The notes under the pieces: generated by a model
The model's database searches: none
What the model saw: only the letters and a program-made list of their open reading frames with translations
Told to the model about the DNA's origin: nothing
Translations under genes and position numbers: made by a program
Part shown: positions 14,456 through 58,978 of the stretch, piece by piece
Layout of the letters: each line of letters begins with the position of its first letter
Numbering within the stretch: the stretch's first letter is position 1
From: Dehalococcoidia bacterium
Lineage (GTDB): Bacteria; Chloroflexota; Dehalococcoidia; Lucifugimonadales; UBA3495
Direction of reading: 5' to 3'
DNA length: 64,000 nucleotides
Assembly: GCA_965215975.1 (NCBI GenBank)
Contig: OZ244136.1
Location: forward strand, 2,965,281-3,029,280

Positions 14456-14478
14456 GCCAGTCCAGGATGGTATTTACC

Positions 14479-15336: not shown

Positions 15337-15373
15337 TTAAACGCCTCTCTGTTTAATACACGGTACTAACGAC

Positions 15374-15406
15374 GGGCCCTCGCTTAAACGAGGGCCCTAC
15401 CTTTTG
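15374..15406. terminator. Hairpin between the convergent VOC and thyX genes (possible bidirectional terminator)
   Basis: 9-bp perfect stem GGGCCCTCG/CGAGGGCCC with a 6-nt loop, then TACCTTTTG. Confidence 0.5.
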
Positions 15407-15425
15407 CCAATTTGGAGTGGTCGGG

Positions 15426-21003: not shown

Positions 21004-21271
21004 TTCCGTCTCCCGTTCCCCTGGTGGGGACCGCTCCCGTGGGAGGAGGTTCCGGCGGCTTAGAGGGTGGATTCGCTGTGGAAGAAGTTCTTGACTTTGG
21101 TTGTTCGCTAAGGTCGGCAGCGGCAGTCATTTCATTTACTGTGCGCCGCATATCGCCGATCAATTTTCCGGCGGTGCGAGCCATCTCAATGGTCTTGGCC
21201 GGGCCCATGACCAGAAAGGCTATGAGAAATATCAGGGCCAGTTCCAGGAATCCAACGCCGAACAGGTTCAT
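20972..21271 (-). CDS. TatA/TatB-family protein (TatB-like)
   Basis: MNLFGVGFLELALIFLIAFLVMGPAKTIEMARTAGKLIGDMRRTV resembles TatB, followed by a Pro-rich tail. The start overlaps the upstream gene's stop as ATGA. The 3' end overlaps tatC by 32 nt. Confidence 0.75.
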   Translation of the reverse strand: MNLFGVGFLELALIFLIAFLVMGPAKTIEMARTAGKLIGDMRRTVNEMTAAADLSEQPKSRTSSTANPPSKPPEPPPTGAVPTRGTGDGNEQQPRTDPD

Positions 21272-23112
21272 TTCTGTTCCGCCTCGGATCCTTTAAACGG
21301 GCAATGTCCGAAACACTGCCCGCCCACTGACTCCGGCATGTCGGAGGGCACAGGATAGCCCAGTTCTTCCAGCATCTCCATAAGCCGGCAAAGAGGTAGC
21401 CCCACCACGTTGGTATAACATCCACCCTGCAGGGTAGCTGGTCTAAAGACGGTGTCCTGGACAGCATAGGCGCCGGCCTTGTCCATTGGAGTGCCCGAGG
21501 CGATGGACTCTTCCATCTCCTCGTCGGTAAAGTCGCGCATGACAACTTCGGCGGTCATGTGGTCGGTCATAGACAGGCCAGTGGCAACGTCTACCACGGT
21601 TAGGCCGGTAGTTACCTGGTGTTCCGTCGCCCGAAGCTGTTGAAGCATCTTACGTGCGTCGTCTTCGTCCTCTGGCTTGCCAATGGAGCGGCCATTCAGC
21701 ACCACCGTGCTATCCGCCCCAATTACAAAACCCTCTTTGAGCTGACCTGCTACCAGCATGGCCTTGTCGCTGGAAAGACGACGCACCATCTCTTCGGCCG
21801 ACTCGCCTTCAAGTTGTTCCTCCGGGGCGTTGGAGGGGGTCACCTCAAAACGCAGGCCCAGTTCGGTCAGCAACTCCCGTCGTCTTGGAGAGCCGGAAGC
21901 CAGAATTAGAGGAGAAGTGGTTTCTCTAAGTGAGAGCACGGCAACGCACTCAACGTGATGGGTTTGGGGGAACATGTCCAGGGGTTGGACTTGTTCGATA
22001 GAATAGTTGTTGGCGCAGAGTAGTTTCAGGTCCCTGGCCAGAGTTTCGGGGTCGCAGGAAACGTAAACCAACATAGGTGAACGTAGTTTAGCCAGGTGGT
22101 CGAGTGCCGACGGTTGGCATCCGGCTCTGGGCGGGTCGAGGATCACCACATCGGGGCGCTCCGGCAGGTCTGCCAATACGTCCTCCGTCTTCCCCAAGAG
22201 GAACTGGATGTTTTCGGCTCCCACTGCATTTTCCTTGGCATCAGCCACGGCTGCGGATGATTCTTCGATGGCGTAAACCCGCTTTACGAAGGGCGTCAGA
22301 AGGATGGCAAACGTGCCTACGCCCGTGTAGGCATCGAGCAGAACTTCACTGCCGGAGAGATTGACCGCTTCCCGCACTATCCCAATCAACTGCGCGGCTT
22401 GGTCAATGTTGACCTGAAAAAAAGAAGGGGAAGCCACTCGAAATGTACGTTCCCCTACCGATTCGATGTAGTGCTTTTGTCCCGTGGGTATGGGGATTTC
22501 AGGGTTCTTCAGAGGAGGCTGCACCAGGTATTCGTCGGTCTCCCGCCCAGCCCGTATGGCGAGTTGAGTTGTCTCCCCGCAACGGTCCTGTAGGTGGCCG
22601 AGGATGCTATTGATTCCCTCGTGCATCAACATACAGTTGTCGATGTGGACGAATCTTCTGGTTTCCCGGTTGACGAATCCTAGGTCGCCTTCTCTGCCAA
22701 CGGTGAACCTTGCGTGGTTCCGGTAACCGTATTGAATGGGAGAGGGAAGGGTGGGATGTACCTTGACGTCATTCAGTCCTCCAACTCTCTCGAGGGCATC
22801 AAGTACCTTGTCGCGCTTGACACTGAGCTGGGCCGAGTAGTCCATGTGCTGCCATTGACATCCGGTGCACACACCATAGTACTGGCAGGGCGCATCAATT
22901 CTTGATGGAGAAGCCTCCAGGACTTGCTCTACTATTGCGGCCACATATTTTCGGCGAACCCTGATGACTTCGGCCACAACTCTCTCGCCAGGGATGCCGC
23001 CCAGGACAAATACATCCTGACCCTCGTGGTTGGCCATTGCCTCTCCCAGGCGCCCCCACGATTTCAACGATAGCTCCAACCGTTGGCCGACAGTCACTTT
23101 TTCTTGTACCAA
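21268..23112 (-). CDS. Fusion protein: TRAM/RumA(RlmD)-type RNA (uracil-5)-methyltransferase plus C-terminal Maf nucleoside-triphosphate pyrophosphatase
   Basis: The N-terminal ~415 aa have a TRAM-like start, a Cys cluster (CQYYGVCTGCQWQH), the SAM-binding LLDAYTGVGTF, and DPPRAG...VSCDP...HVECVAVL. This runs directly into LILASGSPRRRELLTELGL...AGAYAVQ (Maf), with no stop or start at the junction (about nt 21915-21935). Confidence 0.8.
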   Translation of the reverse strand: MVQEKVTVGQRLELSLKSWGRLGEAMANHEGQDVFVLGGIPGERVVAEVIRVRRKYVAAIVEQVLEASPSRIDAPCQYYGVCTGCQWQHMDYSAQLSVKRDKVLDALERVGGLNDVKVHPTLPSPIQYGYRNHARFTVGREGDLGFVNRETRRFVHIDNCMLMHEGINSILGHLQDRCGETTQLAIRAGRETDEYLVQPPLKNPEIPIPTGQKHYIESVGERTFRVASPSFFQVNIDQAAQLIGIVREAVNLSGSEVLLDAYTGVGTFAILLTPFVKRVYAIEESSAAVADAKENAVGAENIQFLLGKTEDVLADLPERPDVVILDPPRAGCQPSALDHLAKLRSPMLVYVSCDPETLARDLKLLCANNYSIEQVQPLDMFPQTHHVECVAVLSLRETTSPLILASGSPRRRELLTELGLRFEVTPSNAPEEQLEGESAEEMVRRLSSDKAMLVAGQLKEGFVIGADSTVVLNGRSIGKPEDEDDARKMLQQLRATEHQVTTGLTVVDVATGLSMTDHMTAEVVMRDFTDEEMEESIASGTPMDKAGAYAVQDTVFRPATLQGGCYTNVVGLPLCRLMEMLEELGYPVPSDMPESVGGQCFGHCPFKGSEAEQK

Positions 23113-23744: not shown

Positions 23745-23841
23745 GGGAGTGGAAGGGGCCCGGTGGCTCTTGCGGACTTCAAATCCGTTGTGCCTCGTGA
23801 AGAGCGGGGTAGGTGGGTTCGACTCCCTCGCACTCCCGCCA
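23745..23841 (+). tRNA. selC: tRNA-Sec (anticodon UCA) candidate, with encoded CCA
   Basis: 97 nt. The 8-position acceptor GGGAGUGG/GCACUCCC has 7 WC pairs and a G-G at the base. 6-bp D stem GGGGCC/GGCUCU (two G-U) with the 4-nt loop CGGU. Anticodon stem GCGGA/UCCGU with loop CUUCAAA. Long variable arm (23789-23812) with stem UGCCUC/GGGGUA. T loop UUCGACU. Discriminator G then CCA (23839-23841). Confidence 0.8.
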
Positions 23842-23951: not shown

Positions 23952-26240
23952 CTAACCGGTTAATCCCTCGGCGCGTCTCAAGTCATCAAGCTCCTGGCCG
24001 ATGAAGGCGACATCTTCACCCTCTCCGTTCAGAGCGGCCAAGACCCGCTCGCCTGACAACGGCAGTTCCCGGATTCTCACACCGACGGCATCGTAGATGG
24101 CGTTGGCTATGGCGGCCGGCGGGCCGAAACCAGGTGGTTCCGCCACCGCCCTGGCTCCAAAGGGGCCGTCCTCCGACGGAACCCGAACCATTAAAGTCTC
24201 TAGCTCAGGCAGGTCGAGGGCTAAGGGCATGAGGTACGATGCAAACGACGGATTCCGGATCGCGCCTGTTTCCGAGTCGAACTGCAAGTCCTCCGTAAGG
24301 GCACGCCCAATGCCCTGCACGGCGCCGCCTTCCAATTGACCTTCAACCGCCATGGGATTTATAGCGACTCCAACGTCCTGGCACTGCACGTAGCGGGTCA
24401 GTTTTACTTGACCTGTCTCCCTGTCCACCACGACCTCAGCTGCCTGGGCGCTAAAGACCGGGGCGTAAGGCAAAGTGGACAGGGATGCGTTGCCAACTAC
24501 AGGTCCGGTGCGGGAATTGACGCTCATAGAGGCCAATTGTCCTATGGTGAAGCCCTGTGGGGGATTGTCCTGGACATAAACCCGCCCTTCTGTGCAAACC
24601 AGCGCGTCGTGGGGCACACCCAAGCGGTCCGAAGCAAGAGCCAGCAGCTTGTTGCGGACATCCTCTGCTGCAAGTTCAACCGCTTTCCCCTGGCTGTAGA
24701 CGATACGACTGCCACCGCTGGGCCCGGTGAAGGGAGCCAGGTCCGTGTCCCTGCTAGCGACAATAACCTGGTTGAAACCGATACCCAACGCCTCGGCTGC
24801 TATGGAAGCCAGCGACGTGTCGCTTCCGGAGATGTCCACCGAGCCGGTCAACAGGCTGACTGTACCATCTTCGTTAACGCTTATTGAAGCGGTGGACGGG
24901 CCCGTGCCGCTGCGCCATTCGCACAGAGCAATTCCCACGCCGTGTCCTTCGGGCATTTCCTTGGGCAGCCCCAGTCGTTCCTTTATGGCCATCAGGCATT
25001 CTTCCAGGCCGTTCCTTGGTACTCGCGAACCGTTGACCGCCGTATCTCCTTCCTTGATCGCATTTTTTAGCCGGAATTCCAAAGGATCTATACCGATCTT
25101 GTGGGCAATCATGTCCATGTGCGATTCGACGGCGAACGTCATGTCAGCGACCCCGGAAGCCCGGTAGGAACCGACGTATACTTTGTTTGTGTAGGCCCCA
25201 TATGATCGCAGACGGAAGTTGGGAATGTTGTATGCGCCGAGGCCATGTCCTATGCCGGAGTTGGGCCCGGCGCCCAGGTAGGCACCGACGTCAAAGATGG
25301 TGTAGGCCTCTCTTGCCAAGATTGAGCCGTCTCTGTTCACTCCGGTCTTAAGGTAATTCGTAACGGGATGGCGAGGGCCGTTGAGAGTAAAGACCTCTTC
25401 CCTGGTGTTAATAAGTTTGACCGGGCTTCCCGTTTTCATCGAAAGCAAGGCAGGAAAAGCTTCAAAAGCCAGGCGTAGTTTGGCGCCGAACCCCCCACCG
25501 AGTTCCATAGGGATAATCTTGATGTTTGAGAGGGGCATGTCCAAGACCTGGGCAAGCTGAGCACGCACCTGGTAAGGGCCCTGGGTCGAAGCCCAAACGG
25601 TCAGGCGGCCGTTGGCTTCCACGTTGGCTACGCAGGCCATCGGTTCCAGGAAACCCTGGTTGATGCCCTGAGACCGGAAGGTATCTTCGAAAACAAAGTC
25701 GGCGTCCTCGAAGGCTTTTTCTACGTCTCCTCGGTCCGCATCCAGAAGGGTACAGATATTACCTCCGTCGATGGTGAAGCCGTAGCCTTCAAAGCTCTCC
25801 AGATCAGGATGTACTGTAGGGGATCCTTCTCGAAGGGACGTCAGGGGATCAACCACGGATTCCAGATCCTCGTATTCGACCTGGATCAGACTAATGGCTT
25901 CCTGGGCCGTGATTTCGTCCTCGGCAGCCACCGCAGCCACCGGTTCGCCAATGTAAAAGACTTCGTCCCGGGCCATTATGTAGCGATCCTTCAACGCCCC
26001 GGAGCCAAATCGAATTTCGGGGAAGTCACTTCCGGTTATTACGACGCGAACACCGGGTAATGCCTCTGCCTTTGAGGTATCTATGCTTACTATTCGGGCG
26101 TGACTGCGGGTGCTGGCAAGGATTTTGCATAGCAGCATGCCGGGCAAATAGACATCTCCGGCATAGGTTGCTCGGCCTGTCACCTTTTCCCAAGCATCAA
26201 CCCTGGGATTATTTTGCTCCAGAACCTTGTATGTGGTCAT
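23952..26240 (-). CDS. Xanthine dehydrogenase/aldehyde oxidase family molybdopterin-binding large subunit
   Basis: 762 aa. N-terminal a/b-hammerhead pattern (GRATYAGDV...ARIVSIDTS.A..LPGV), then Moco-binding domains (GGGFG, YRASG). Confidence 0.85.
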   Translation of the reverse strand: MTTYKVLEQNNPRVDAWEKVTGRATYAGDVYLPGMLLCKILASTRSHARIVSIDTSKAEALPGVRVVITGSDFPEIRFGSGALKDRYIMARDEVFYIGEPVAAVAAEDEITAQEAISLIQVEYEDLESVVDPLTSLREGSPTVHPDLESFEGYGFTIDGGNICTLLDADRGDVEKAFEDADFVFEDTFRSQGINQGFLEPMACVANVEANGRLTVWASTQGPYQVRAQLAQVLDMPLSNIKIIPMELGGGFGAKLRLAFEAFPALLSMKTGSPVKLINTREEVFTLNGPRHPVTNYLKTGVNRDGSILAREAYTIFDVGAYLGAGPNSGIGHGLGAYNIPNFRLRSYGAYTNKVYVGSYRASGVADMTFAVESHMDMIAHKIGIDPLEFRLKNAIKEGDTAVNGSRVPRNGLEECLMAIKERLGLPKEMPEGHGVGIALCEWRSGTGPSTASISVNEDGTVSLLTGSVDISGSDTSLASIAAEALGIGFNQVIVASRDTDLAPFTGPSGGSRIVYSQGKAVELAAEDVRNKLLALASDRLGVPHDALVCTEGRVYVQDNPPQGFTIGQLASMSVNSRTGPVVGNASLSTLPYAPVFSAQAAEVVVDRETGQVKLTRYVQCQDVGVAINPMAVEGQLEGGAVQGIGRALTEDLQFDSETGAIRNPSFASYLMPLALDLPELETLMVRVPSEDGPFGARAVAEPPGFGPPAAIANAIYDAVGVRIRELPLSGERVLAALNGEGEDVAFIGQELDDLRRAEGLTG

Positions 26241-26350
26241 TTCGTCAACTCCTGACTAAGGACTGGGAAAGCCATGATTCTCAAAGACCCGGTGAGCTAG
26301 CGGGAAGAGAAGAGCGCTTTCGGGTTGTTCAAAATTCAAGCAGCCCCGAA

Positions 26351-26833
26351 TCAATTCCCGGCGTCTGACATCCTGTCTGCCGCCAACATTATGGCTTCAA
26401 CCACTTTGGTATACCCCGTACAGCGGCAAAGGTTGCCCCCAATAGCAAACTTTACCTCTTCTTCCGATGGTTGGGGTGTTTCGTGGAGCAACCCGGCAGC
26501 GGCCATGATAAGGCCTGGGGTGCAGTACCCGCACTGCAGACCGCCACGTTCAATAAATGCCTGCTGAACGGGATGTAAACTCTCTACTGAACCCAGTCCT
26601 TCAATGGTCGTCACGTCGGAATCCCGGGCACTTAGGGCCAATACCAGGCACGACGTTACGGGCTTGCCGTCCAGAATGACAGTGCAGGCCCCGCAATCCC
26701 CTTCGTCGCAGCCTTTCTTGGTGCCGGTGAGTTGCAGTTCGTCGCGAAGAGTGTCCAATAGCGAGTAGTAGGGCGCAACCAATAACTGTCTTGATCGGCC
26801 ATTTACCGTCAACTGTAGAGGTTTCTTATTCAC
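26351..26833 (-). CDS. (2Fe-2S)-binding small subunit of the molybdenum hydroxylase
   Basis: GTG at 26833 lies 6 nt after the SD AGGAGG and gives 160 aa. Cys motifs [11 protein letters not shown] and CGYCTPG...CRCTGY. The ORF-track start at 26923 would run into the IS element. Confidence 0.85.
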
Positions 26834-26843
26834 CGAATACCTC

Positions 26844-27947
26844 CTAGTGTCCTGTATCCAAAGTACGTTGGCAAAAGCGGGCAACGTTGGCCAGTATTTG
26901 GTCGGCGGTCTGGGTCCAGACAAAAGGTTGGGGATCTTCGTTGGTGACGTCCAGATAGCGGTAGATGGCAGCCTCCAGTTCGGCGCTGCTCCGATGCACG
27001 CCGCGGCGCAACTGCTTTTCGGTGAGCAGACCGAACCAGCGCTCCACCAGGTTCAGCCAGGAGGCGCTGGTGGGTGTGAAGTGCATATGGAAACGGGGCC
27101 GCTTGGCCAGCCAGTTGCGGATCAGCGCCGTCTTGTGGGTGGCGTAGTTGTCCGCGATCAGGTGGACGTCGAGGTCGGCGGGCACCTCGGCCTCGATGGT
27201 ATCGAGGAATTTGCGGAACTCCACGGCCCGGTGCCGTTGGTGGCAACGACCAATCACCTTGCCGGTCCTGGTGTCCAAGGCGGCGAACAGCGAAGTGGTG
27301 CCGTGACGCAGATAATCCACGTAATCATGGGTGCGCCGTTCCACCTGTCCCGGGCGCATGGGCAATAGCGGACGGGTGCGATCCAACGCCTGGATCTGGG
27401 ACTTCTCGTCCACGCACAGGACCAACGCCCGATCCGGCGGGTTGAGGTATAGCCCCACAACGTCCCTGACCTTCTCGATGAAGAAGGGGTCTGCCGACAA
27501 CTTGAAGGTCTCCGTGCGGTGGGGCTGCAATCCGAAGGCTCGCCAGATGCGGCTGACCGTGTTGTGGCTCAGCCCGCTGCGCTGGGCCATGGACCGGGTG
27601 CTCCAGTGGGTCGCGTCCTTGGGGGTGGTCTCCAGCGTCAGCGTAATCACACGCTCCACGTGGTCATCGGTAACCGCTCGAGGCCGTCCGCTGCGCGGTT
27701 CGTCCGACAGTCCGTCCAGCCTCCGTTCCAGGAACCGGGAACGCCACTTCCCCACCGTCTCATCGGACACTCCCAGGTCGGCGCCCACCGTGGTATTGCT
27801 GCGGCCTTCGGCACAGCCCAAAATCATTCTGGCCCGCAGCGCCAAAGCTTGCGCCGTTTTCGGACGGCGAACCCACCGTACCAGGGCTTCACGCTCCACC
27901 TCATCCAAAATTACCGGCGGCATTGGTCGTCCGATTGCCATGGTCAT
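26844..27947 (-). CDS. IS630-family DDE transposase
   Basis: 367 aa. N-terminal HTH region, then [27 protein letters not shown] and WLNLVERWF (D, D, E positions typical of IS630/Tc1). The last sense codon ends at the element terminus and the TAG stop lies at 26844-26846. Confidence 0.9.
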
Positions 27948-28020
27948 CCTCCTCTGGATTGCTAACCCGGAGGATACCTCATCGTGAATACTATTACAAC
28001 TGACTTCAGTTACACCACAC
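26847..28020 (-). mobile_element. IS630-family insertion sequence (1174 bp) flanked by a TA duplication in a CTAG target
   Basis: Imperfect terminal inverted repeats: GTGTCCTGTATCCAAAGTACG at 26847-26867 versus the reverse complement of 28000-28020, GTGTGGTGTAACTGAAGTCAG (14/21 identical). TA at 26845-26846 and at 28021-28022. Joining the flanks restores ...CCTC-CTAG-AGTG.... One transposase ORF. Confidence 0.75.
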
Positions 28021-28084
28021 TAGAGTGTTTTCAGGTCTATCTAATTTAGTTAGTAGAGACTAGCGGATTGCAAGGGTCTGCGGG

Positions 28085-29008
28085 CTAGAAGGCCGTTTGT
28101 ACTGCCAGTCGCCGCAATTCCTCAAAGGGCATTGCCTGACCGCCGGCAATCCTGAGGGCATATTGAAGAGTCCGTTGGGTAAGGGCCCCAACCATGGCCT
28201 CTCGGTAAGCCGCTGTACCGCGAACGTCGTCAATCGGAGTAGCGGCCTCCTGTGCCAGCGACGCCGCCTCAGCCAGTGATTCCTGGGTCAAGGCTTTACC
28301 CTTTAGGAATTCTTCTGCCGCTTTTGCCCGAAAGGGAATCGGCCCCACCGCGCCCAGGGCAATCCGGGCATCGCGACACGTCCGACTATCACCCTCCAGA
28401 GAAATCACCGAGGCAATGCCAACAGTAGCAATATCCATTGCTCCTCGAGGGCTGTGCTTTATGTAAAGAGACCCCGTATTGGGCAACGGCGTTGGCAAAG
28501 TTAATTCCGTGAGGATTTCGCCTGGTTCGAGCGCGGTGCGGCCAGGTCCCTTGAAGAACTCGGTCAGTGGCAAAGAACGGTTGCCCGCCGAACCGGCGAT
28601 AGTGCACTGCGCGTCGAATGCCAACAGGGCAGGAAGCGTGTCGCCGGCGGGGGATGCGTTGCAGAGATTCCCCCCCACAGTCGCCAGGTTCCTAACCTGC
28701 ACGCCGGCGAAGGATGTGGCGCCGGCAGCCAGCGCCTGGTAACGTCGCCTTACCTGGGGATGGGACTCGATAGCCTGTACCGTTGCCAGGGTTCCAAGCC
28801 TGAGTCCGTTCCCCGAACTGTACGAAACGCGACTCAAACTGGAAATTCCCTTTAGATTGACTACGTGGGATGGTCGCCAGAATCCCTGCCGCCAGCGCAC
28901 CAGAAAATCGGTGCTGCCGGCGACTAGCCTTGCATCTTCCCCATGCCGCTCCAGTAGCGAAATGGCTTGACGAACATTTCTTGCTTCCAGGAAATCGAAC
29001 CTGAGCAT
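28085..29008 (-). CDS. FAD-binding medium subunit of the molybdenum hydroxylase (CoxM/XdhB-like)
   Basis: 307 aa. FAD-binding PCMH-type pattern (ARLVAGSTDFLVRWRQG..., ATVGGNLCNASPAGD). Confidence 0.85.
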   Translation of the reverse strand: MLRFDFLEARNVRQAISLLERHGEDARLVAGSTDFLVRWRQGFWRPSHVVNLKGISSLSRVSYSSGNGLRLGTLATVQAIESHPQVRRRYQALAAGATSFAGVQVRNLATVGGNLCNASPAGDTLPALLAFDAQCTIAGSAGNRSLPLTEFFKGPGRTALEPGEILTELTLPTPLPNTGSLYIKHSPRGAMDIATVGIASVISLEGDSRTCRDARIALGAVGPIPFRAKAAEEFLKGKALTQESLAEAASLAQEAATPIDDVRGTAAYREAMVGALTQRTLQYALRIAGGQAMPFEELRRLAVQTAF

Positions 29009-48966: not shown

Positions 48967-51900
48967 CTAGGCGGTCAATTGCCTGTAGAGCATAGGCAAC
49001 CGTTCTGGCAGAGCCCAGATATCGCCCAGCACCTCGTATCCCATATCGCCACACATCTCCTTGAGGTAGTCGTGACCTGCCTTGTCCACGGTCAGGCAGA
49101 AGGGTGTGATATCTTTCCGCTTAGCCTCCATCAGGGCCATGTGAGTGTCATGGACGGCGTATTCCTTCTCCACGCCTTCCCTGCTGTAGCCCCGGTCCTG
49201 GGGCCGTCCATCGCTGATTAGGAACATTATCTTGGTCGGCGAGTCCTGGTTTTCCAGCTTGGTTATGGCGTGGCGGATTGCGCTACCCATGCGGGTGGCA
49301 TGGAGGGGCGTTATCTTGTCGATGCGCCTCTTAATCCGCTCACTGAAGTTTTCCTCAATATCTTTGATGACATAGAACTCTACGTTCTCTCGCCCGTAGC
49401 CAGAAAAGCCGTAGATACCATAGTTGTCACCGATGGATTCTAAGGCCGAGATCAAGAGGGCAGTGCTCTCTTTTTCAAGGTCGATAATACGCTTGTAGTG
49501 TCGGCGGACCAAGCCTTCGCGACGCCGGCGCAGCCAGACCATGTATTCTACCGGATCGTCCGGGGCGTCCCGGTCGTCCACAGTATGACGACCTTCGTCG
49601 ATAGCTTCTGCGGTGGAAGCGCTCATGTCCAAAAGGAAAACCACAGAAACGTTTCGTTCAATCTTGTTGCGCCGCCAGTAGATTTTTTCGTCCGGCGGCA
49701 CCTTCATTCGAATGTCTGCTGCCGCCTCCAACGCTGCGTTGAGGTCAATGTCCTCGCCATCTATCATCCGGTAAATTTTCCGGAAGGTTTCCGGCATTAT
49801 CAGCTCGAACTGACGCTTGATGTGAGTCAGAAGAGTCGAGTAGTTCTTCAACGAATCGTTATAAAATGCTGAATCGCCTTCGTCCAGAGATTTTTCCTTG
49901 ACCACGCACCAGCGCGGCTTGTAGTCATTGGCTCGGAAGTCCCATTCGTCATAGACGTAAGTCTTGGGCTCTCGGGCTTCCAGCTCCCCTCCCTGGTCAT
50001 CGTCGTGCAGCAACGGCCCGTACCCTTGACCGGGCTGGGAATTGGGAGGAGGAACGCCGGCCTCCTTCATAATGTTCTGAGCAAAGGTGCTCATACTGTT
50101 GTTTATGTCACCCTGCTCTGCGTCCAACTCCAGTTCGGCGCTATCCTGCAGTAATTGCTCCAGCATCTCCTGGGAAAGAGGCTCCCCTTCGCCCTGCTGG
50201 TTTTGGTCCATTTGAAGCTTGGTGAGGAGTTGAACCATCTCAGGCTTGAAGTCGCCACGATAGTCCACTGGTTCCGGAGAATCATAAGGATCGCCTTCGC
50301 CGCTGTCTCCAGAGGCATTTTGAGAGGCTTGCAACTTGTCCAGGAGAGACTGGAACTCCTCCTCGGAAAAGTCGCCAGGTTCCTCCATATCTTCCGGTTC
50401 CCACTGGTCTTCGGGTTGAGTTTCGTTCTCCAGTCGCGAAATAATCTCGTAGGCCCGCAGAGTAGCTTCCGCCGTGTCTTCCACGTTGGCCGAAGCGTCC
50501 CTCAGCACTAGCAGAATCTGGGCCAGCATGGTCGCCTCTTCCCTGAAGTCCACGGGAATGGGTAGGTTGTTGAACTGGTCCAGGCTCATCCTGATCAGTA
50601 GTTCGACCAGCGCCTCCTGCAGAGGCATGTCCTCGACCTCCGGTCGGCGGGCCAGAGTGTCCGACTGCACGTCAACGGCGACCCGACGAATGCCCGGGTA
50701 CTCGACCTTGATGCGGAAATCCAGTCGGCAGTCCTCCAGGACTGTGAAAAGGTCAAAGGCAAGGTGACGGTTGTCGAAAAGGCTGAGAAAGCGTCCGATG
50801 TCAGTAAAGGCACGAACTTGGCCGTCGGCCTCGACGTCGCCCACCAGCACGTCATTGCTAATTTCCAGAGCTCCCCGCTGTCGCTCCAAAGCATAACGCC
50901 TTTCCTCCTCAAATCGGAGGGCTGGCTTGGTAAAGTCGTAGAAAAAACTGCCGAACTCCAGATGGCCCACTTGATGGGTAGCAACCACCTTGAACCACGA
51001 GAAGTTCTGGCTCTTGTCCTGGTAATGGTCCACCACCGGGGGCAAGAAGACCTTTGTGCCGTCCGTGGATGCAGTGTCCTCGTCCACCCAGCCAATATTG
51101 CGGCGTACCAGTTCCTGGGTGTTCATGACCTCTATGGGAGTACCTGACAGGGCACGGCAATAGAGTCTAACCACACCCTTAACTCGGTCCAGCTCCAAGC
51201 TGGATGACAGAGTCTCCAGCAACGACTCAGAAGTATTGGACTCTACCTTGAAGAACGCGATTCCGCTTTCAGGGTTTTCCTTCAAGAGTTGAACGCCTTG
51301 ATGGAACCAGGTGTCCAACTGGTTGATAGTAACTCGGCGCAATACGCCATCCAAGCTCTTGAGAAATGACGGAACCGCTTCTGGGGTTATGGCAAGCAGG
51401 CCCTCGCACAGGTCCAGAATATGGGCCTGAGAACCCTGTGGAACCTCGCTCAGCGCCAAGCTACCGTCAGAAAGGAAGCGAGCCGTGTCCCGAATTCCTA
51501 CCTTTGTGAGACGCTCACCCAGTTTTAGGAATCGGCTGGTCTGGCCCTCTTCAATCTGTTGCAAGGCCTTGGGCGCCACTTCGAAACAGCTCTTGACCTC
51601 ACGCCAATTTCCATCGGACAGGGCTCGGCACATGGCCAGGAAAGCTTCCCGCTCCCGCCCCATTACCGGCAGAACGTCCTTGCCCAAGGTCAGGCATTCT
51701 ACGGCTATATCGTAAGACTTGTAGGAAAGAGCCTCGATCAGAGACGCGAATACCTCAACGTCCCAGAAGGGCAAGCTACGTATCAAGTCAGGGCTTACCT
51801 CAAAAAAGCGACCCGACAGGGTGCTTGATTTCCAGGTTCCCTTGTACAGACTGCGGCCCAACCCAGCCCAGCGAGGTATGTACTGGGGTCGCAGGTTGGA

Positions 51901-52227
51901 CACTATTGACGGGCTGGCTTTGAAGAAGGAGACAGCCAGGGCCGGAGAGTCCTGGGACAGATACGTCCCGCACCGGGCCCACTGCATGAAGGAGGGAAAG
52001 GCCAGTGATCGAGCTACCAGCGGACATACGCGGTAGTACTCCACCGCCGATTCCCAGGACCGCACTGTCTGGCCCGCAATAGCCGCTCCTTCCTTAGCCC
52101 AGAGGAGGAGTTCTTCGGAAGAAAAGGATGATTCCATTGCCTCGGATGCTTCCCGATAAGCATCCATTACGCCGGGAGGGAATTTGGATAATTCCGCTTC
52201 TATTTCATCAAAGGGAGCATTGCTCAA
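48967..52227 (-). CDS. Large VWA-domain protein of the CbbO/NorD type (1086 aa)
   Basis: C-terminal VWA domain with MIDAS VVFLLDMSAST...SDG. An acidic low-complexity linker (EDQWEPEDMEEPGDFSEEEF...GEGDPYDSPEP). A long helical N-terminal region with LYCRALSG and THQVGHLEFGSF, as in CbbO/NorD. The TTG start overlaps the upstream stop as TTGA. Confidence 0.8.
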   Translation of the reverse strand: MSNAPFDEIEAELSKFPPGVMDAYREASEAMESSFSSEELLLWAKEGAAIAGQTVRSWESAVEYYRVCPLVARSLAFPSFMQWARCGTYLSQDSPALAVSFFKASPSIVSNLRPQYIPRWAGLGRSLYKGTWKSSTLSGRFFEVSPDLIRSLPFWDVEVFASLIEALSYKSYDIAVECLTLGKDVLPVMGREREAFLAMCRALSDGNWREVKSCFEVAPKALQQIEEGQTSRFLKLGERLTKVGIRDTARFLSDGSLALSEVPQGSQAHILDLCEGLLAITPEAVPSFLKSLDGVLRRVTINQLDTWFHQGVQLLKENPESGIAFFKVESNTSESLLETLSSSLELDRVKGVVRLYCRALSGTPIEVMNTQELVRRNIGWVDEDTASTDGTKVFLPPVVDHYQDKSQNFSWFKVVATHQVGHLEFGSFFYDFTKPALRFEEERRYALERQRGALEISNDVLVGDVEADGQVRAFTDIGRFLSLFDNRHLAFDLFTVLEDCRLDFRIKVEYPGIRRVAVDVQSDTLARRPEVEDMPLQEALVELLIRMSLDQFNNLPIPVDFREEATMLAQILLVLRDASANVEDTAEATLRAYEIISRLENETQPEDQWEPEDMEEPGDFSEEEFQSLLDKLQASQNASGDSGEGDPYDSPEPVDYRGDFKPEMVQLLTKLQMDQNQQGEGEPLSQEMLEQLLQDSAELELDAEQGDINNSMSTFAQNIMKEAGVPPPNSQPGQGYGPLLHDDDQGGELEAREPKTYVYDEWDFRANDYKPRWCVVKEKSLDEGDSAFYNDSLKNYSTLLTHIKRQFELIMPETFRKIYRMIDGEDIDLNAALEAAADIRMKVPPDEKIYWRRNKIERNVSVVFLLDMSASTAEAIDEGRHTVDDRDAPDDPVEYMVWLRRRREGLVRRHYKRIIDLEKESTALLISALESIGDNYGIYGFSGYGRENVEFYVIKDIEENFSERIKRRIDKITPLHATRMGSAIRHAITKLENQDSPTKIMFLISDGRPQDRGYSREGVEKEYAVHDTHMALMEAKRKDITPFCLTVDKAGHDYLKEMCGDMGYEVLGDIWALPERLPMLYRQLTA

Positions 52228-52820
52228 GACGTTAGCCCCTCCTTCTTAAGAGAGTCTTCCATGATGTCCAGAAATTGCTGCAGGATCTTTGCGGTGGCGC
52301 CGTAGACCACATGCTCTTCAAACGCGAAGGAATAAACCGTACTCAGTCCTTCGCCGGTCCAACGAGTTTCCCATCGGATGTTTGCCGGATCATAGAGGCT
52401 GGCGATGGGGACCTCCAAGACCTCGGCTATTTCCACATCACTGGGCTGAAAGGGGTAGGGATAAGGAATTGCGCCTACAAATACCCTGACACCGAACCCA
52501 CTGCGAGTAACCGCGTCGTCCAACTCGCCGAGAATGGTAACGTGAGAGGGGTTGATGCCCATCTCCTCCTCCGCTTCCCTTAGCGCGGTCGCAGTAAAGT
52601 CACCGTCTTCAGGGTCGCGGGCACCGCCAGGAAAGGATATTTCTCCCTTGTGGTGTTCGACTTGCTCCGACCTTTTGTTCAGGAGAATGCAGTACTGGCC
52701 GTCTTTGGGGTACAAGGCTACCAATACGGCAGCAGGCATCAAACTATCATCGGTCACTTTCCATTGGGACCGGTGTGCCAATGCCTGCCTTACCAAGTCG
52801 GGGGTGGATAAACCCATCAA
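52224..52820 (-). CDS. NUDIX hydrolase, CoA pyrophosphatase-like
   Basis: NUDIX box GGARDPEDGDFTATALREAEEEMGI preceded by ILLNKRSEQVEHHKGEISFPGG, which matches the CoA-pyrophosphatase (NudL/Nudt7) signature region. Confidence 0.75.
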   Translation of the reverse strand: MMGLSTPDLVRQALAHRSQWKVTDDSLMPAAVLVALYPKDGQYCILLNKRSEQVEHHKGEISFPGGARDPEDGDFTATALREAEEEMGINPSHVTILGELDDAVTRSGFGVRVFVGAIPYPYPFQPSDVEIAEVLEVPIASLYDPANIRWETRWTGEGLSTVYSFAFEEHVVYGATAKILQQFLDIMEDSLKKEGLTS

Positions 52821-52825
52821 AACCT

Positions 52826-53752
52826 CTATTCGAAGATGGAGGAAACCACCTCTTCCACGCTGCGTTGAAGCTCTGCTTCGTCAGTAAGTGTCCAGACTAT
52901 GGCTACCTGGCAAGCCCGCCGCGCGGGAATACCTTCTCTCATCAACCGACCAGCGTAAATGAGCAATCGCGTGCTGGCGCCCTCTGCGAGGCCGTGATCT
53001 CTGAGATTGCGTACCTTCTCGCCCAGCTTAGCCAGTGCACTGGCTTGCTCTTCGGTACAGCCGCTTTCCTTTTGAACAATCTCCGCCTCAATGTCAGCCG
53101 GAGGATAGTCAAACTCCACCGAGATAAATCGCTGGCGGGTGCTGTGCTTCAGGTCCTTCAACGCGCTCTGGTAGTGTGGATTGTAGGATATACAAAGGAG
53201 AAAACGGTCGTCAGCCTCTATTATCTGCCCTGTCTTTTCCACCGGCAGGATTCGCCGGTGGTCAGTCAAAGGGTGAATCAGTACCGTTGTGTCCTTCCGT
53301 GCTTCCACTATCTCGTCGAGGTAAAGTATTGCGCCCGTCTTAACGGCGCGGGTCATCGGGCCGTCTATCCAGCGGGTACCATCGGAATCCAGCAGGTAGC
53401 GTCCAACAAGGTCGCTGGCCGTCAGGTCTTCGTGACAGGCGATCGTTACCAGAGGAACACGAACTTCGCCTTCCCGGACGTCTTGCACCTGGCGCTCACC
53501 ATCGGTGGGCTTGACCACGGCCATGGGCCTGCCCAGTTTCCAGGCCATGTATTCCACGAAGCGGGTCTTCCCGCAGCCGGTGGGGCCCTTCAGCAATACG
53601 GGGATGTGCTGATTATAGGCTGCCGTAAAGAGTTCCAATTCGTCACTTACGGGGCGATAATAGGGTTCGCTTCGAACCAAAAACTCTTCGATTGCGTACT
53701 CTTTGTACTGAGGTTCATTCTGTTCCTGTTCGGACTCAACCGCTTCTACCAT
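52826..53752 (-). CDS. CbbQ/NirQ/NorQ-type (MoxR-class) AAA+ ATPase
   Basis: Walker [12 protein letters not shown] and Walker [11 protein letters not shown]. Start MVEAVESEQ... at 53752 forms TAATG with the coaE stop. The ORF-track start at 53791 would overlap coaE by 40 nt. Confidence 0.85.
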
Positions 53753-54363
53753 TATGTTCGTCCAATCCTTCCTTTGACTCTGCGTTCCCAAATTTCCTTG
53801 ACGGTATTCTCCAGATCCGGCAACTCTCCTGAGTTGCTAACTACCTCGGTGGCACGACGAGACCGCTCATCGGAGGACATCTGAGAGGCTATACGCTTTC
53901 GAATCTCATCAGGTTCGTAACCGTTTCTCTCCTGTAGCCTGGCAACCACAAACTTTTCTGGAGATTCCGTAGTCCAGACTTCATTAACCAGCGTGTCCCA
54001 ACTTGCTTCAAACAGGACTGCTGCCTCCACGACAGCCACTTCAACACCTTGTGTCTCCAGGCCGCGCAGCTTCTCCCTGACGATGGCTGCCATTCTAGGA
54101 TGCATTATCCCATTCAAGGTGGCCAAGTTTTCAGGGTCGGCGAAAACGATGCTTCCAAGCTTTCGACGGTCTATCTCTCCGTTCTCTTGCAGAATGTTGT
54201 CGCCAAATGCCTTTACGACCTCTTCCCAAGCTTCGGAATGAGGAGTATAGGCCTCGTGGCCGACCTGGTCTGCGTTTATAACCTCTGCGCCCAGTTCCTG
54301 CAATAGCCGGGAGACTTCGGTCTTGCCTGTTCCTATGCCGCCGGTAAGGCCAATGACTAACAT
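53752..54363 (-). CDS. coaE: Dephospho-CoA kinase
   Basis: [18 protein letters not shown]-loop start. 203 aa. Confidence 0.9.
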
Positions 54364-54487
54364 TTGGGCCTCAATTCTGAAAGCACTCCCGCCATTCTAA
54401 CAAGGGGGTAAGTAAGGGTCAACCTTACGCTGAGGACTGATCCAAGCACGGCAATCCCTAGCGGCTCAGTATTAGGCCAACTGGTGA

Positions 54488-55156
54488 TCACAGGTCTATC
54501 TTGATTTCTCCCCAGCGATTCAGGAAGGCCTCCTGCAGTTGATGAAACTTTTTTCTATATTCTTCGGTATGGATCGGGCTGGTGGTCATTATCACCGCGT
54601 CTTCCCGGTTATCGGAATAATAGTTCTTGCGAATGCCCACTTCCTGAAACCCGTATTTATCATAGAGTCGCTGAGCAATGAAGTTGGAAACACGAGCTTC
54701 GAGGGTAAGGACTGTTGATCCGCGTTCCATGGCAACTCTAACGGAGCCGATTAACAGCAATTCCCCTATGCCGTTGCCTCTCAGTTTTTCCCTCACGGCG
54801 ATCTCGGTGATATGAGCTTCATTACCCTGAAACCACAGTCCCACATAACCGGCAACATCCTCCGGCTTTCCGTCGTCGGAAGTTGGCTTGCCCACCATGT
54901 CTTTTACGCCACGTACCATGCGACCCCATAGGGAGGCATCGGATGGCCCCAGTGCATTCGACTCCGATGATTGGGGATCTTCGTCCAGTGCTTCCTCTAA
55001 ACCTTCGGGTTGGCAAGCAACCAAATAGCGGGCATATCGATTATTGAGTTCCCGTTTGAAGGCAGTGCCCAGCCTCAAGGGTAAAAAAGCCTCTCTTTCG
55101 ATATCGATGACCTGCTCTATGTCTTCGGCCCGAAGTCGTCGAATTGCTATATCCAT
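54488..55156 (-). CDS. rimI: GNAT N-acetyltransferase, RimI-like
   Basis: Start MDIAIRRLRAEDIEQVIDIEREAF (ATG at 55156). Acetyl-CoA motif IAVREKLRGNGIGELLL. An acidic/Ser-rich insertion of about 50 aa lies between the N-terminal and core segments. Confidence 0.7.
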   Translation of the reverse strand: MDIAIRRLRAEDIEQVIDIEREAFLPLRLGTAFKRELNNRYARYLVACQPEGLEEALDEDPQSSESNALGPSDASLWGRMVRGVKDMVGKPTSDDGKPEDVAGYVGLWFQGNEAHITEIAVREKLRGNGIGELLLIGSVRVAMERGSTVLTLEARVSNFIAQRLYDKYGFQEVGIRKNYYSDNREDAVIMTTSPIHTEEYRKKFHQLQEAFLNRWGEIKIDL

Positions 55157-55338
55157 TTCTTGATGCTTACCTGAAGTGGATTCGGGAAGAGTAATGCCGT
55201 TTTTGGCGTTTCGCCAACAATGCAGCATTTTAACATAGCAAGGTAGGTTTGTGGTTTTGGTGACTTGCTCTTGGCTCTTGTTACTATGCAGAAGCTTAGG
55301 ACTCAAGGGGAAAATGCAAAGGGACGAACGCTTTCAAT

Positions 55339-56610
55339 TTACTTGCTTGTAGGTGCCTTCCCGTTGGCAATGGGCGAAGACACCGAAACCTTTCCATAAA
55401 CCCCATCGTAGCCTGGTTCGATGTGAATTTCTCCTTTTCTGGCTTTCAATACTGCGTCAACCAAGTCGATCCTCGCCGCCTGCACCAGTTCTGCTTCTTT
55501 GGCCCACAGTAAAACTTGTAACTCCGACCCCAACTCTCCTACCAGCGCCTGGTATTCGGTTAACACTCCCTTGGTATTGGGACCGTGCTGTCTGACTGCT
55601 GCAATTATGTCAAGGAGCGGAACCATTCTGAAAAAGGGCGGCCTCCCCGAAGAGGAGCTTATTGAGTCCGACGGCGAAGTGGCTCTACTCCAGGAGTTGT
55701 TTGGCATTTCCGTGCTGAAATCTTCCCCTGCCAATTCAAGCACCCGATGCAAGACTCCCAAGGTCAACGGCCGGTTGCATTCGAGGCAACGGCCTCCGTT
55801 TGAGTTAGATTCCTCGGGGTGACTGCAAACTCCGCACTTCCGGTGACCGTCGTAATGATACTTACCTTCTTCGGGGTACATTTCAACCGTATAGTCGACC
55901 AGATTGCGCTGCAGGGCAACTTTCAGCCCCTCGTAGCTTGGTTGGCCTCCAAACACAGTAACTTCCCGGCCAAGTTTCGGAAGGGAATGGGCGTCGGAAA
56001 AGGAGACAATAGCCTTGCTACCCAGTTCAGGCACCGACCAGTTCATTTCCGGGTCACTGGAAAGCCCCGTTTCTATGGCCGGTATGTAGTCAAAGACGTC
56101 GCCAAAGGCCTCGGAAAGGCTGTTAAAGCCCGACTTGGAACCATAAATCCCGTACCATGGAGTCCAGGCATGTGCTGGAACAATCAGGCAATCGGGGTTA
56201 GTTTCCAATACCAAATGCACGAGTTCCTGGACCGAAATGCTTAGCGTGGGCCGCCCGTCAAATTTCAGATTGCCGTAGGAAGAAAAGGCCTTGGACAATC
56301 TGGCTGCAGTCTGCATGTCGGGACTAAAGACTAGCAGATGGACTCTGCGCCCACGGCCTCCCTGTTTATAAACGCAGCTAACTTCTGTTCCCATTATGAA
56401 ATTGACTCCACCGTAGCTGTAAGTGCCGGAGGAGTCTTCCGTCAGGGTTTGCTTTAGTTCCTCTGCCCAAGTGGGGTGGGTGAAGTCAGCTGTGGCTAGA
56501 AGGTCAATGCCTTTGAGGCGGGCCCAGTGAGCCAAATTTTCCAGGGTAAGGGCACTACTTGTGGCGTAGGCATAGGGGGAATGGAGATGTAAATCGGCAA
56601 CAAAGGACAT
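55339..56610 (-). CDS. PHP-domain protein resembling endonuclease Q (EndoQ)
   Basis: N-terminal PHP motif ADLHLHSPYA...GIDLLATADFTHPTW. Internal zinc finger CGVC-x12-CLEC followed by LTLGVLHRV. About 420 aa, as for EndoQ. Confidence 0.6.
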   Translation of the reverse strand: MSFVADLHLHSPYAYATSSALTLENLAHWARLKGIDLLATADFTHPTWAEELKQTLTEDSSGTYSYGGVNFIMGTEVSCVYKQGGRGRRVHLLVFSPDMQTAARLSKAFSSYGNLKFDGRPTLSISVQELVHLVLETNPDCLIVPAHAWTPWYGIYGSKSGFNSLSEAFGDVFDYIPAIETGLSSDPEMNWSVPELGSKAIVSFSDAHSLPKLGREVTVFGGQPSYEGLKVALQRNLVDYTVEMYPEEGKYHYDGHRKCGVCSHPEESNSNGGRCLECNRPLTLGVLHRVLELAGEDFSTEMPNNSWSRATSPSDSISSSSGRPPFFRMVPLLDIIAAVRQHGPNTKGVLTEYQALVGELGSELQVLLWAKEAELVQAARIDLVDAVLKARKGEIHIEPGYDGVYGKVSVSSPIANGKAPTSK

Positions 56611-57574: not shown

Positions 57575-58978
57575 CTACTTGAATGAATTGGTCAAAGCCT
57601 GCAATAGCTCTTCATCGGATCTGGTCGACACCGTTCGCGGATCAAGCAGCACCCGGTCGTCCTCGATACGCGCGATCACCGGAGGGTCAGCTTTCCGCAA
57701 ACGTTCCATTACTTGCTGTGCGCCACCTGCCACCGTGCTGCAATCAAGAGAAAGCACTCTCGTAGGCAGAGTCTCACCGGGCAAGCTGCCTCCCCCGATG
57801 GCGGAGCGGCTGTCGTCAACCCTGGCATGAACGCCAGGAATTTCCTGGACGGCCTTCTGCCATGATATGGCACGTTCTTCCAGAAGCTGCACCGGGGTGG
57901 AAATCATTCGCCATATTGGGATCTCCCGTTCAGCTTCTCCACGCAGATAATGCACCAGAGTGGCGATAAGGGAAGCAAGGCTCATTTTGTCGATGCGAAA
58001 AGCCCTGGCCAATGGGTGACGCTCCAATCGGTTTACCAGATCCCTCGTTCCGACTACAATCCCCGCCTGGGGCCCCCCAAGCAGTTTGTCCCCGGAAAAG
58101 AATGTAAGGCCAACGCCTGCCGCTACACTCTCCTGGGGAGTGGGTTCGTGGGCCAACCCGTAATTCTCGGTTAGGAGAAGGGAACCACTGCCCACATCGT
58201 GCAAGACCGGAACATCTTTTCGGGCGCCCAATTCAACAAGCTCTCCAGGTTCGACTGCTGCCGTGAAACCTTCCACGCGAAAATTGCTGGCGTGAGCCTT
58301 CAAGAATGCTCCAGTATTCTGGGTAATTGCGTCCTCGTAGTCTCTGGCGTAGGTACGGTTTGTGGTTCCCACGTCAACCAGTATGGCCCCGCTTTGACTG
58401 AGCACGTCAGGCACCCTGAACCCGCCGCCTATTTCAACCGCTTCACCCCGGGAGACTATGACTTCCTTCCCAGCCGCCAAAGCCGACAAACCAAGAAGCA
58501 CCGCAGAGGCGTTGTTGTTGACCACCAATGCAGCTTCAGCGCCCGTCAATTCCTGGAGAATGTTTTGAAGGTGGGCCTGTCGGGAACCCCGCCGGCCGCT
58601 TCCAAGGTCAAATTCGAGGTTCGAATATCCCTGCGCGGCCAGAATTGCTGCCTCGGAAGCGGCACGACTCAGGGGGGCCCGCCCCAGATTTGTGTGAATG
58701 ACGACACCAGTAGCGTTGATGACGGGTTGAGGGGCCGGCCGGTTCATGGATTCCAGGGCATCTCGCGTCGCCGAAGCTACCTGGTCAATAGTAGGGGCTG
58801 CCGAACCGTTCATGACTTCCGCGCGGGCACTGGCCAGTTGCTGGCGGACTACGGAGACAATCCATTCCCTGCTGTAGGTCCTTATCTCCTTGCTCAACAA
58901 GTCGGAAGCTACTACTCGCTCCACGCTAGGTATGTTGCGTAGTTGCGTCACCTTTACGTCCCCTCTGTATGGTTCCAC
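57575..58978 (-). CDS. selA: L-seryl-tRNA(Sec) selenium transferase
   Basis: 467 aa. N-terminal LRNIPSVERVV and PLP-lysine motif FSGDKLLGGPQAG are typical of SelA. Confidence 0.9.
   Translation of the reverse strand: MEPYRGDVKVTQLRNIPSVERVVASDLLSKEIRTYSREWIVSVVRQQLASARAEVMNGSAAPTIDQVASATRDALESMNRPAPQPVINATGVVIHTNLGRAPLSRAASEAAILAAQGYSNLEFDLGSGRRGSRQAHLQNILQELTGAEAALVVNNNASAVLLGLSALAAGKEVIVSRGEAVEIGGGFRVPDVLSQSGAILVDVGTTNRTYARDYEDAITQNTGAFLKAHASNFRVEGFTAAVEPGELVELGARKDVPVLHDVGSGSLLLTENYGLAHEPTPQESVAAGVGLTFFSGDKLLGGPQAGIVVGTRDLVNRLERHPLARAFRIDKMSLASLIATLVHYLRGEAEREIPIWRMISTPVQLLEERAISWQKAVQEIPGVHARVDDSRSAIGGGSLPGETLPTRVLSLDCSTVAGGAQQVMERLRKADPPVIARIEDDRVLLDPRTVSTRSDEELLQALTNSFK

Follow-up and report, generated by a model that had tools for sequence, protein, structure and literature searches.

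NorQ/NorD and CbbQ/CbbO are the closest described relatives of the predicted motor proteins treated here. NorQ and NorD form the FeB-insertion chaperone of the nitric oxide reductase (NOR) cNOR, for which cryo-EM structures are available (9qh4-9qhg; PMC13036017), and CbbQ and CbbO form a RuBisCO activase (5c3c, 6l1q) of the composition Q6O1, in which a VWA adaptor with a MIDAS (metal ion-dependent adhesion site) grips an acidic residue of the client (PMC5437159). CobS/CobT and BchI/BchD are likewise motors composed of an AAA+ protein and a VWA adaptor. Here, we analysed a window of 64,000 nucleotides (64 kb) from a Dehalococcoidia bacterium (GCA_965215975.1, contig OZ244136.1, positions 2,965,281 to 3,029,280), in which the gene of a CbbQ/NorQ-type MoxR AAA+ ATPase (hereafter Q) is preceded by coaE, encoding dephospho-coenzyme A (CoA) kinase, and followed by the genes of a NUDIX hydrolase and of a giant NorD/CbbO-type VWA protein. 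Literature searches (CbbQ with NUDIX; MoxR with VWA and dephospho-CoA kinase; orphan CbbQ/CbbO) returned no description of this operon and no link of a CbbQ/NorQ motor to CoaE or NUDIX, and to our knowledge a Nudix CoA diphosphatase encoded inside an AAA+/VWA pair has not been described.

We read the locus as a housekeeping operon that has been passed on vertically. A scan using one genome per species gave 80 Dehalococcoidia loci with VWA identities of 44-94%, and 70 of these had enough upstream sequence to be evaluable. The order coaE-Q-NUDIX-VWA was found in 69 of the 70 evaluable Dehalococcoidia/SAR202 loci, with varying flanking genes, and coaE was located directly upstream of Q in all 70; the sole exception, L081, carries no NUDIX gene, and L061 was missed by the hidden Markov model (HMM) search and recovered by tblastn. 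Since the order is kept at VWA identities down to 44%, it is not fortuitous. A preliminary description of the window had pointed out the NUDIX gene between the AAA+ and VWA genes and had named beforehand a lack of conservation among relatives as speaking against it; no such lack was seen, and the insertion is real and conserved. All VWA homologues at 73-97% identity originate from metagenome-assembled genomes (MAGs) labelled Chloroflexi, SAR202 or Dehalococcoidia, and the recovered genomes contain a single locus each. Conservation across the Dehalococcoidia genomes is higher for Q (61-94% identity) and the VWA protein (44-94%) than for CoaE (39-73%) and NUDIX (29-82%).

In the dark ocean and in sponges, SAR202 and other Dehalococcoidia rank with the most abundant bacterial groups. 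The operon was found in all evaluable Dehalococcoidia genomes examined; as its adaptor is better conserved than the surrounding housekeeping genes, it probably has a central role.

The block tolerates interruption by lineage-specific insertions. Between Q and NUDIX, L028 (6866-7333) and L057 (6875-7342) carry a 155-aa gene with, by eye, a VOC/PhnB fold, a similar gap of ~550 nt is present in L029 and L069, and L046 has a 512-aa ORF (4817-6355) that by eye is DNA methylase-like, together with extra ORFs.

The predicted motor proteins and their accompanying enzymes

The Q protein carries AAA_5 (7.5e-28) and CbbQ_C (3.4e-29) domains in Pfam and matches CbbQ2 of A. ferrooxidans (5c3c, 2e-103) and NorQ (9qhd, 6.6e-87) in the PDB. 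The identity in aligned columns is 57-60% to CbbQ, the closest AAA+ protein by sequence, and 54-55% to NorQ. Walker A (GPTGCGKT, aa 56-63) and Walker B (LYLDE) are both intact, as is the H2-insert motif GRxLLxxxxT (GRxLL/IxxxxT) that sequence and alignments reveal in Q and that is also present in NorQ; in the NorQD cryo-EM structures, this motif touches the NorD finger (PMC13036017). Unlike CbbQ (5c3c, 6l1q) and NorQ (9qhd, 9qh4), Q has extra residues inserted behind its Walker-A helix. Such an insert, 8-27 aa long and differing in sequence, was present in every Q adjoining a giant VWA protein (20 of 20 displayed loci) and appears to distinguish the Q proteins with such a partner. The CbbQ, NorQ and giant-VWA Q groups are mutually 52-61% identical, and a neighbour-joining tree including four PDB references did not separate the clades.

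On the opposite strand, a 369-aa antisense shadow ORF (52775-53884, plus strand; cluster c8) covers the entire AAA+ gene and beats Q in naive longest-ORF gene calling, and the same artefact is seen in several related loci. As the shadow ORF masks Q, the Q genes of related loci were located by six-frame HMM searches.

The last ~330 residues of the VWA protein align to NorD at 1.2e-33. This alignment takes in the finger region (aa ~808-858, corresponding to PdNorD 403-448) and the C-terminal tail, where YRQLTA is aligned with the NorD tail as YRQL(T/V)A; deletion of the tail in NorD abolishes NorQ binding (PMC13036017). In a Foldseek search with the AlphaFold2 (AF2) model of the protein (mean predicted local distance difference test score, pLDDT, 80.7), the top matches were NorD VWA domains (9qh6_G, 7.6e-15, TM-score 0.77 on target), and the others were other VWA domains. 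The MIDAS residues D867-x-S869-x-S871, T978 and D1006 do not vary among 24 diverse homologues at 27-49% identity; Pfam searches of these homologues at E up to 1 gave VWA-type domains and sporadic CobT matches only, with the N-terminal 750 aa unmatched. Compared to NorD, 35 aa are inserted in the protein behind the DxSxS loop of the MIDAS.

The canonical adaptor architecture (~640-760 aa, with N-domain, linker and VWA) does not fit this protein, which has 1086 aa, in contrast to ~640 aa in NorD, and an added solenoid of eight repeats spanning ~340 aa. It is also ~330 aa longer than CbbO; no CbbO chain was matched in the PDB search, so CbbO sequences were not directly compared. The solenoid region is all-helical in the AF2 model (aa 1-340, pLDDT ~90) with a repeat autocorrelation peak at lag 37 (-0.24 vs a shuffle maximum of -0.62 +/- 0.05); it gave no Pfam or PDB matches and is kept in distant family members according to the alignments. 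The middle domain (aa 341-600) has the invariant residues H418-Q419, E498, R501, Y510 and G512, and its profile shows weak similarity to the N-domain of NorD (E 0.013) and to that of CobT (E 0.039), the latter sharing an 'A(R)xIFxxVExxRv(D/E)' segment with it. When modelled separately (aa 335-625, pLDDT 86), this domain gave nothing better than E 1.5 by Foldseek against the PDB. A zincin-like reading of its 'HQxGH' helix was dropped, as the second His is not conserved. As in NorD, an acidic or flexible linker lies between the N-domain and the VWA domain, and the acidic linker at aa 601-750 corresponds in position to the NorD linker, which is functionally essential (PMC13036017). The NorD match of the VWA region, the weak profile matches of the N-domain and the solenoid repeats together identify the protein as an adaptor of the NorD/CobT type to which a repeat platform has been added at the N-terminus. 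The preliminary description had taken the AAA+ protein for an ATPase of the CbbQ/NorQ type and the 1086-aa protein for a CbbO/NorD-like VWA protein, and both assignments agree with the matches found here. In contrast to CobS/CobT and BchI/BchD, the AAA+ protein belongs to another subfamily, and the locus contains neither a CobN/BchH-like third subunit nor a tetrapyrrole context.

The kinase was identified by Pfam CoaE (5.1e-49) and by TIGR00152, for which it passed the equivalog threshold (164.4 bits vs a cutoff of 65.55). The NUDIX protein (Pfam 3.8e-13) has the CoA pyrophosphatase PRK10707 as its best NCBIfam model (4.4e-32), and its PDB matches at <=1e-19 are all CoA diphosphatases, namely AtNUDT11, NUDT7 and DR1184 of D. 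radiodurans (~1e-20). In common with these enzymes, and with E. coli NudL and human NUDT8, it has a Nudix box and an upstream NuCoA-like motif. The NuCoA motif reads LLTxR[SA]x3Rx3Gx3FPGG, and the segment LLNKRSEQVEHHKGEISFPGG fits it except for one Arg (RSEQVEHHKG). Across 100 NUDIX homologues, the motif KRS..VE.H.GEISFPGG...TALRE..EEMGI is conserved. The hydrolase is therefore predicted to be of the CoA-diphosphatase type, which together with coaE would give the operon a CoA theme; in this, the partner enzymes differ from those of CbbQ/CbbO, being predicted to act on CoA-type nucleotides and not on sugar phosphates.

Gene contexts in distant relatives

An exhaustive search of representatives with the VWA protein gave 4146 clusters at E <1e-3 and 1348 at E <1e-30, and full-length homologues of 1000-1130 aa reach down to 29% identity. 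Gene contexts of distant members were obtained by direct look-ups and from one metagenome scan; in all, ~170 loci were examined, and the taxa given are those of the nearest named relatives. Judged from these sequences, the giant VWA protein and its Q partner appear to form a family found in at least three phyla.

Seven types of context were seen, (a) to (g). Type (a), PHP-Q-VWA-coaE, was found in L084, L085, L099 and L170, with 60% identity between the VWA proteins of L085 and L170; for the L085 adaptor, the relatives with a name come from Candidatus Tectomicrobia MAGs, and L110, which is cut upstream, shows Q-VWA-coaE only. In type (b), an enoyl-CoA hydratase (ECH) gene precedes Q-VWA and a PHP gene follows slightly downstream, the closest named relative being a Desulfobacterales MAG, whereas type (c) consists of coaE-Q-VWA without a hydrolase (L081, L082, L106, L150). 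Type (d), coaE-Q-Metallophos_2-VWA (L109, L126, L143), has a calcineurin-like phosphoesterase exactly in the NUDIX slot, and a variant of it, Q-Metallophos_2-VWA, was seen in L122, with coaE not detected upstream. An MBL-fold hydrolase accompanies Q-VWA in type (e), being encoded after the VWA gene in L088 and just downstream in L108. Type (f) has Q-VWA beside a dimethyl sulfoxide (DMSO)-reductase-family molybdenum enzyme, and type (g) has Q-VWA alone. Typing of the PHP partner was weak, with a CehA/McbA domain score of 79 bits vs a cutoff of 80 and a match to the COG0613-like 3e0f at the N-terminus only.

Within these contexts, the adaptor is 42-45% identical between the NUDIX and Metallophos clades and has the same architecture. 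The NUDIX slot between Q and VWA is interchangeable with other phosphoesterases, and such refilling marks an enzyme activity that has been displaced by non-orthologous proteins. That one phosphoesterase slot is taken by four unrelated folds is an unusual pattern and provides a concrete handle on the substrate. Furthermore, coaE occurs within ~3 kb of Q-VWA in three gene orders and in at least three distantly related lineages with named relatives in three phyla; we estimate the chance of such an adjacency at ~0.3% per lineage for a single-copy coaE. NUDIX, Metallophos, PHP and MBL, whose folds are unrelated, fill the position while the architecture of the adaptor stays the same, and coaE recurs near the pair in three gene orders, in lineages with named relatives in three phyla; both patterns argue for the small enzymes being functional partners rather than passengers.

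Two of these contexts contain further genes. In L089, one of the type (b) loci with the Desulfobacterales relative, a 472-aa DUF169-CoaE fusion (13999-15417, minus strand) is encoded 3 kb from Q-VWA, with a PHP phosphoesterase and two DUF2889 genes in between. In L086, L087, L133 and L138, the Q-VWA pair or VWA alone adjoins a DMSO-reductase-family molybdoenzyme of ~950 aa, accompanied in L086 by EB_dh, Fer4_11 and NarJ-like genes, and that clade may have this enzyme as its own, different client.

Possible function and competing explanations

With high probability, the locus encodes an ATP-driven remodelling motor, and by homology to NorQD and CbbQO we infer that Q and the adaptor form a Q6O1 complex. 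On balance, we favour the phosphoesterase being a functional partner of this motor. CoA or a CoA-derived nucleotide would be the most economical common denominator, since the NUDIX enzyme is predicted to be of the CoA-diphosphatase type and, in six distant loci, an ECH gene is the direct upstream neighbour of Q. The best explanation of the whole, to which we assign a probability of about 0.4, is that a Q6O1 motor, an exchangeable phosphoesterase and CoaE act together, a CoA-type ligand being stripped from a client and recycled. Its more specific elements, a CoA-related ligand and a client that is a separate protein, are put forward tentatively, and the model of a CoA-ligand client is speculative.

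This mechanism is modelled on the AAA+ RuBisCO activases, including CbbQO, which free inhibitory sugar phosphates, and on the phosphatase CbbY, which degrades one RuBisCO inhibitor. The Q6O1 logic is common to both systems, and the release of an inhibitory phosphorylated ligand is shared in concept only. The adaptor finger and C-terminal tail would dock in the Q ring, the MIDAS site would grip an acidic residue of the client protein, and ATP hydrolysis would be passed on via the linker and the N-domain, with the eight-repeat solenoid as the likely client-specific platform. The motor would thereby open a CoA-binding or CoA-modified client and free a tightly bound or damaged CoA-type nucleotide, which the exchangeable phosphoesterase (here NUDIX, translationally coupled to the adaptor) would cleave, blocking its rebinding, and CoaE would complete the salvage loop back to CoA. 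In its most explicit version, the system would be a 'CoA-enzyme activase', in which the motor frees a central metabolic enzyme of a tightly bound or damaged CoA-type nucleotide, or of a protein modification derived from CoA, a dedicated but interchangeable phosphoesterase destroys the ligand and CoaE regenerates CoA; we consider this version unlikely as it stands. If true, it would be the coenzyme A counterpart of the repair carried out by RuBisCO activase and CbbY and would be universal in one of the most abundant groups of ocean bacteria, and the family would extend the MoxR/VWA chaperones into cofactor (CoA) metabolism.

Several points weigh against a CoA-related function. No client protein emerged from the analysis, and many distant members consist of Q-VWA only, with no coaE or hydrolase within 5 kb, so that the CoA link is recurrent and not universal. 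The NUDIX protein scores 111 bits on PRK10707, below the equivalog cutoff of 134 bits, and has one Arg of the NuCoA motif replaced. A CoA-related substrate is hypothetical for the PHP, MBL and Metallophos enzymes; PHP matches a 3',5'-bisphosphate phosphatase weakly, and its role as a 3',5'-ADP phosphatase is likewise hypothetical. As coaE is often found in unrelated operons, part of its linkage could be historical, and the four distant loci beside a DMSO-reductase-family molybdenum enzyme suggest that clients differ between clades.

A somewhat unlikely alternative is that coaE and NUDIX are passengers kept in order by operon inertia, and that Q/VWA serves a distal client such as RuBisCO, NOR, a CoxL-type molybdenum hydroxylase or another metalloenzyme. 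The motor parts are indeed extremely similar to CbbQ and NorQ, database annotations name these proteins NorD, a CoxLMS-like enzyme is encoded 20 kb away in the window, and molybdenum oxidoreductases adjoin four distant homologues. In addition, norBC and form I rbcL have been reported in some Dehalococcoidia (bioRxiv 10.1101/2021.08.23.457424). However, no RuBisCO or NOR gene was present among the ORFs of at least 150 aa in the window, as the preliminary description had also noted, and neither RuBisCO nor norCB was found among the recurrent or annotated neighbours (5-8 kb) of the ~170 loci, for which no dedicated rbcL/norB flank search was made; in the window, the pair shares an operon with coaE and a phosphoesterase gene. 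All evaluable Dehalococcoidia genomes have the operon, whereas a survey gives no sign of a universal RuBisCO or NOR there. The 340-aa extension of the adaptor and the Q insert have no counterpart in the known structures of CbbQ and NorQ/NorD, the phosphoesterase slot is not lost but taken over by another enzyme, and the linkage to coaE recurs in three gene orders across phyla, all of which argues against a passenger role.

The phosphoesterase could also be the client itself, with Q/VWA as a metallochaperone for the metal centre of NUDIX, Metallophos, PHP or MBL enzymes and coaE as an incidental neighbour. Some characterised AAA+/VWA relatives insert metal (FeB by NorQD, cobalt by CobSTN, with Mg-chelatase/BchID cited alongside), all four hydrolase types adjoining the pair are metal-dependent, with bi- or trinuclear centres in Metallophos, PHP and MBL, and translational coupling links the VWA gene to the NUDIX and to the Metallophos gene. 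We nevertheless find this rather improbable, as the four folds are unrelated while the adaptor has one and the same architecture (42-45% identity between the NUDIX and Metallophos clades), a situation typical of enzyme displacement and not of a change of client. NUDIX enzymes hold Mg/Mn in an exposed site and we know of no need for insertion factors, which makes them a poor fit, although such a role is plausible for PHP, MBL and Metallophos; moreover, the recurrent coaE and ECH genes would be left unexplained, and many family members have no adjacent hydrolase. Far less credible still is an NTP-dependent MoxR-VWA conflict (anti-phage) system with NUDIX as effector or signal degrader. The preliminary description raised this possibility, pointing to proposals of MoxR-VWA pairs as the core of conflict systems; NUDIX enzymes and phosphoesterases can degrade nucleotide signals, and a CHAT-NACHT-TPR gene is present elsewhere in the window. 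Against it, PADLOC found no defence families at the locus, only generic P-loop matches, and no effector or sensor domains were found by Pfam in the operon proteins or in the 24 homologues. The base composition shows no anomaly, each recovered genome has one locus in synteny with rimI, coaE, selA and cinA across the whole class, conservation of the VWA protein exceeds that of the housekeeping proteins encoded beside it, and the AAA+ protein lies in the CbbQ/NorQ chaperone branch; on this point the earlier proposal was not borne out.

The operon proteins are probably mislabelled in databases as a nitric oxide reductase factor, and NorQ/NorD labels (KO K04748-type) have served as evidence for NO reduction. 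In a sponge metaproteome, the 'NorQ' of a Tectomicrobium was consistently detected without NorB/C and was taken as evidence for NO reduction (PMC6081418). The existence of the giant-VWA clade suggests that such an inference from NorQ labels can be wrong, whether the metaproteome proteins are members of this clade or not.

Layout of the operon and other features of the window

The four genes are co-directional on the minus strand and coupled, as the preliminary description had stated, and both the ORFs and the junction bases could be read from the sequence. At the coaE/AAA+ junction TAATG, the stop TAA (53754-53752) and the ATG (53752-53750) have base 53752 in common. The AAA+ stop TAG (52828-52826) is separated by 5 nt from a TTG at 52820; the ATG at 52817 is in the same frame, leaves a gap of 8 nt from the AAA+ stop and is preceded by AGAGG at 5 nt, a better Shine-Dalgarno spacing that makes it the more likely NUDIX start. 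At the NUDIX/VWA junction TTGA, the stop TGA (52226-52224) overlaps the VWA start TTG (52227-52225), which has GGAGG ~10 nt upstream, and this 4-nt overlap is the commonest junction among relatives (21 loci). As the junctions are tight, a promoter-like TTGACC-17-TAGAAT pattern is located just upstream of coaE and cinA, downstream of the VWA gene, is convergent, the four genes look like a single transcription unit.

Features of the coaE-Q-NUDIX-VWA operon, given as positions within the 64-kb window
Feature	Position	Strand	Basis
Sigma-70-like site TTGACC-17-TAGAAT, extended -10 TG	54394-54422	-	Pattern match only, 10/12 consensus positions
coaE, dephospho-CoA kinase, 203 aa	53752-54363	-	Pfam CoaE, TIGR00152
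Q, CbbQ/NorQ-type MoxR AAA+ ATPase, 308 aa from ATG	52826-53752	-	AAA_5, CbbQ_C
Family-specific Q insert, aa 78-99, between Walker-A helix and strand 2	53456-53521	-	Alignment
NUDIX hydrolase, predicted CoA-diphosphatase type, 197-198 aa	52224-52820	-	Pfam NUDIX, PDB, NCBIfam
Giant NorD/CbbO-type VWA protein, 1086 aa	48967-52227	-	C-terminal VWA match, NorD alignment
Helix-hairpin repeats, aa 1-340, ~8 in tandem of 37-38 aa, predicted alpha-solenoid extension	51208-52227	-	AF2 model, autocorrelation
Alpha/beta core domain, aa 341-600	50428-51207	-	AF2 model, alignments
Acidic linker, aa 601-750, mostly low confidence	49978-50427	-	AF2 pLDDT below 50-70
Beta-hairpin YVYDEWDFR..WC, finger region, VWA and C-tail, aa 751-1086	48967-49977	-	NorD alignment, Foldseek

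The operon has rimI, selA and cinA as neighbours, and base composition and GC content are uniform over the window. Directly upstream, the stretch 54488-56610 (minus strand) encodes a RimI-type GNAT with a ~140-aa N-terminal extension (TIGR01575, 110 bits) and a 423-aa protein of the TIGR00375/MJ0043 family, for which Pfam MJ0043_C was matched only in the precomputed annotation of a homologue. Among the relatives, only the closest clade has the rimI-like GNAT gene and the MJ0043-like gene. The selA gene (57575-58978, minus strand) is located 3 kb upstream of the operon and is found near coaE-Q-NUDIX-VWA in many relatives, in either orientation.

Elsewhere in the window, a gene set for a CoxL/CoxS/CoxM-like molybdenum hydroxylase (23952-29008, minus strand) lies 20 kb from the operon. 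An insertion sequence transposase (DDE_3 and HTH, 26844-27947) is inserted between the genes of its small (2Fe-2S) and FAD subunits, overlapping the start of the 2Fe-2S ORF by ~80 nt, and a tRNA-Sec gene (23745-23837, plus strand; Rfam 67.5 bits) is located directly beside the CoxL-like gene. The CHAT-NACHT-TPR gene (4743-8432, plus strand) encodes a 1229-aa protein with a CHAT protease, a NACHT/STAND NTPase and TPR, a conflict-type architecture that appears unrelated to the operon. A 476-aa ORF (15426-16856, minus strand) contains two Thy1 (ThyX) stretches at about twice the usual ThyX length and may encode a tandem-fused flavin-dependent thymidylate synthase, and a 614-aa ORF (21268-23112, minus strand) has a tRNA (uracil-5)-methyltransferase domain fused to a Maf nucleotide pyrophosphatase domain.

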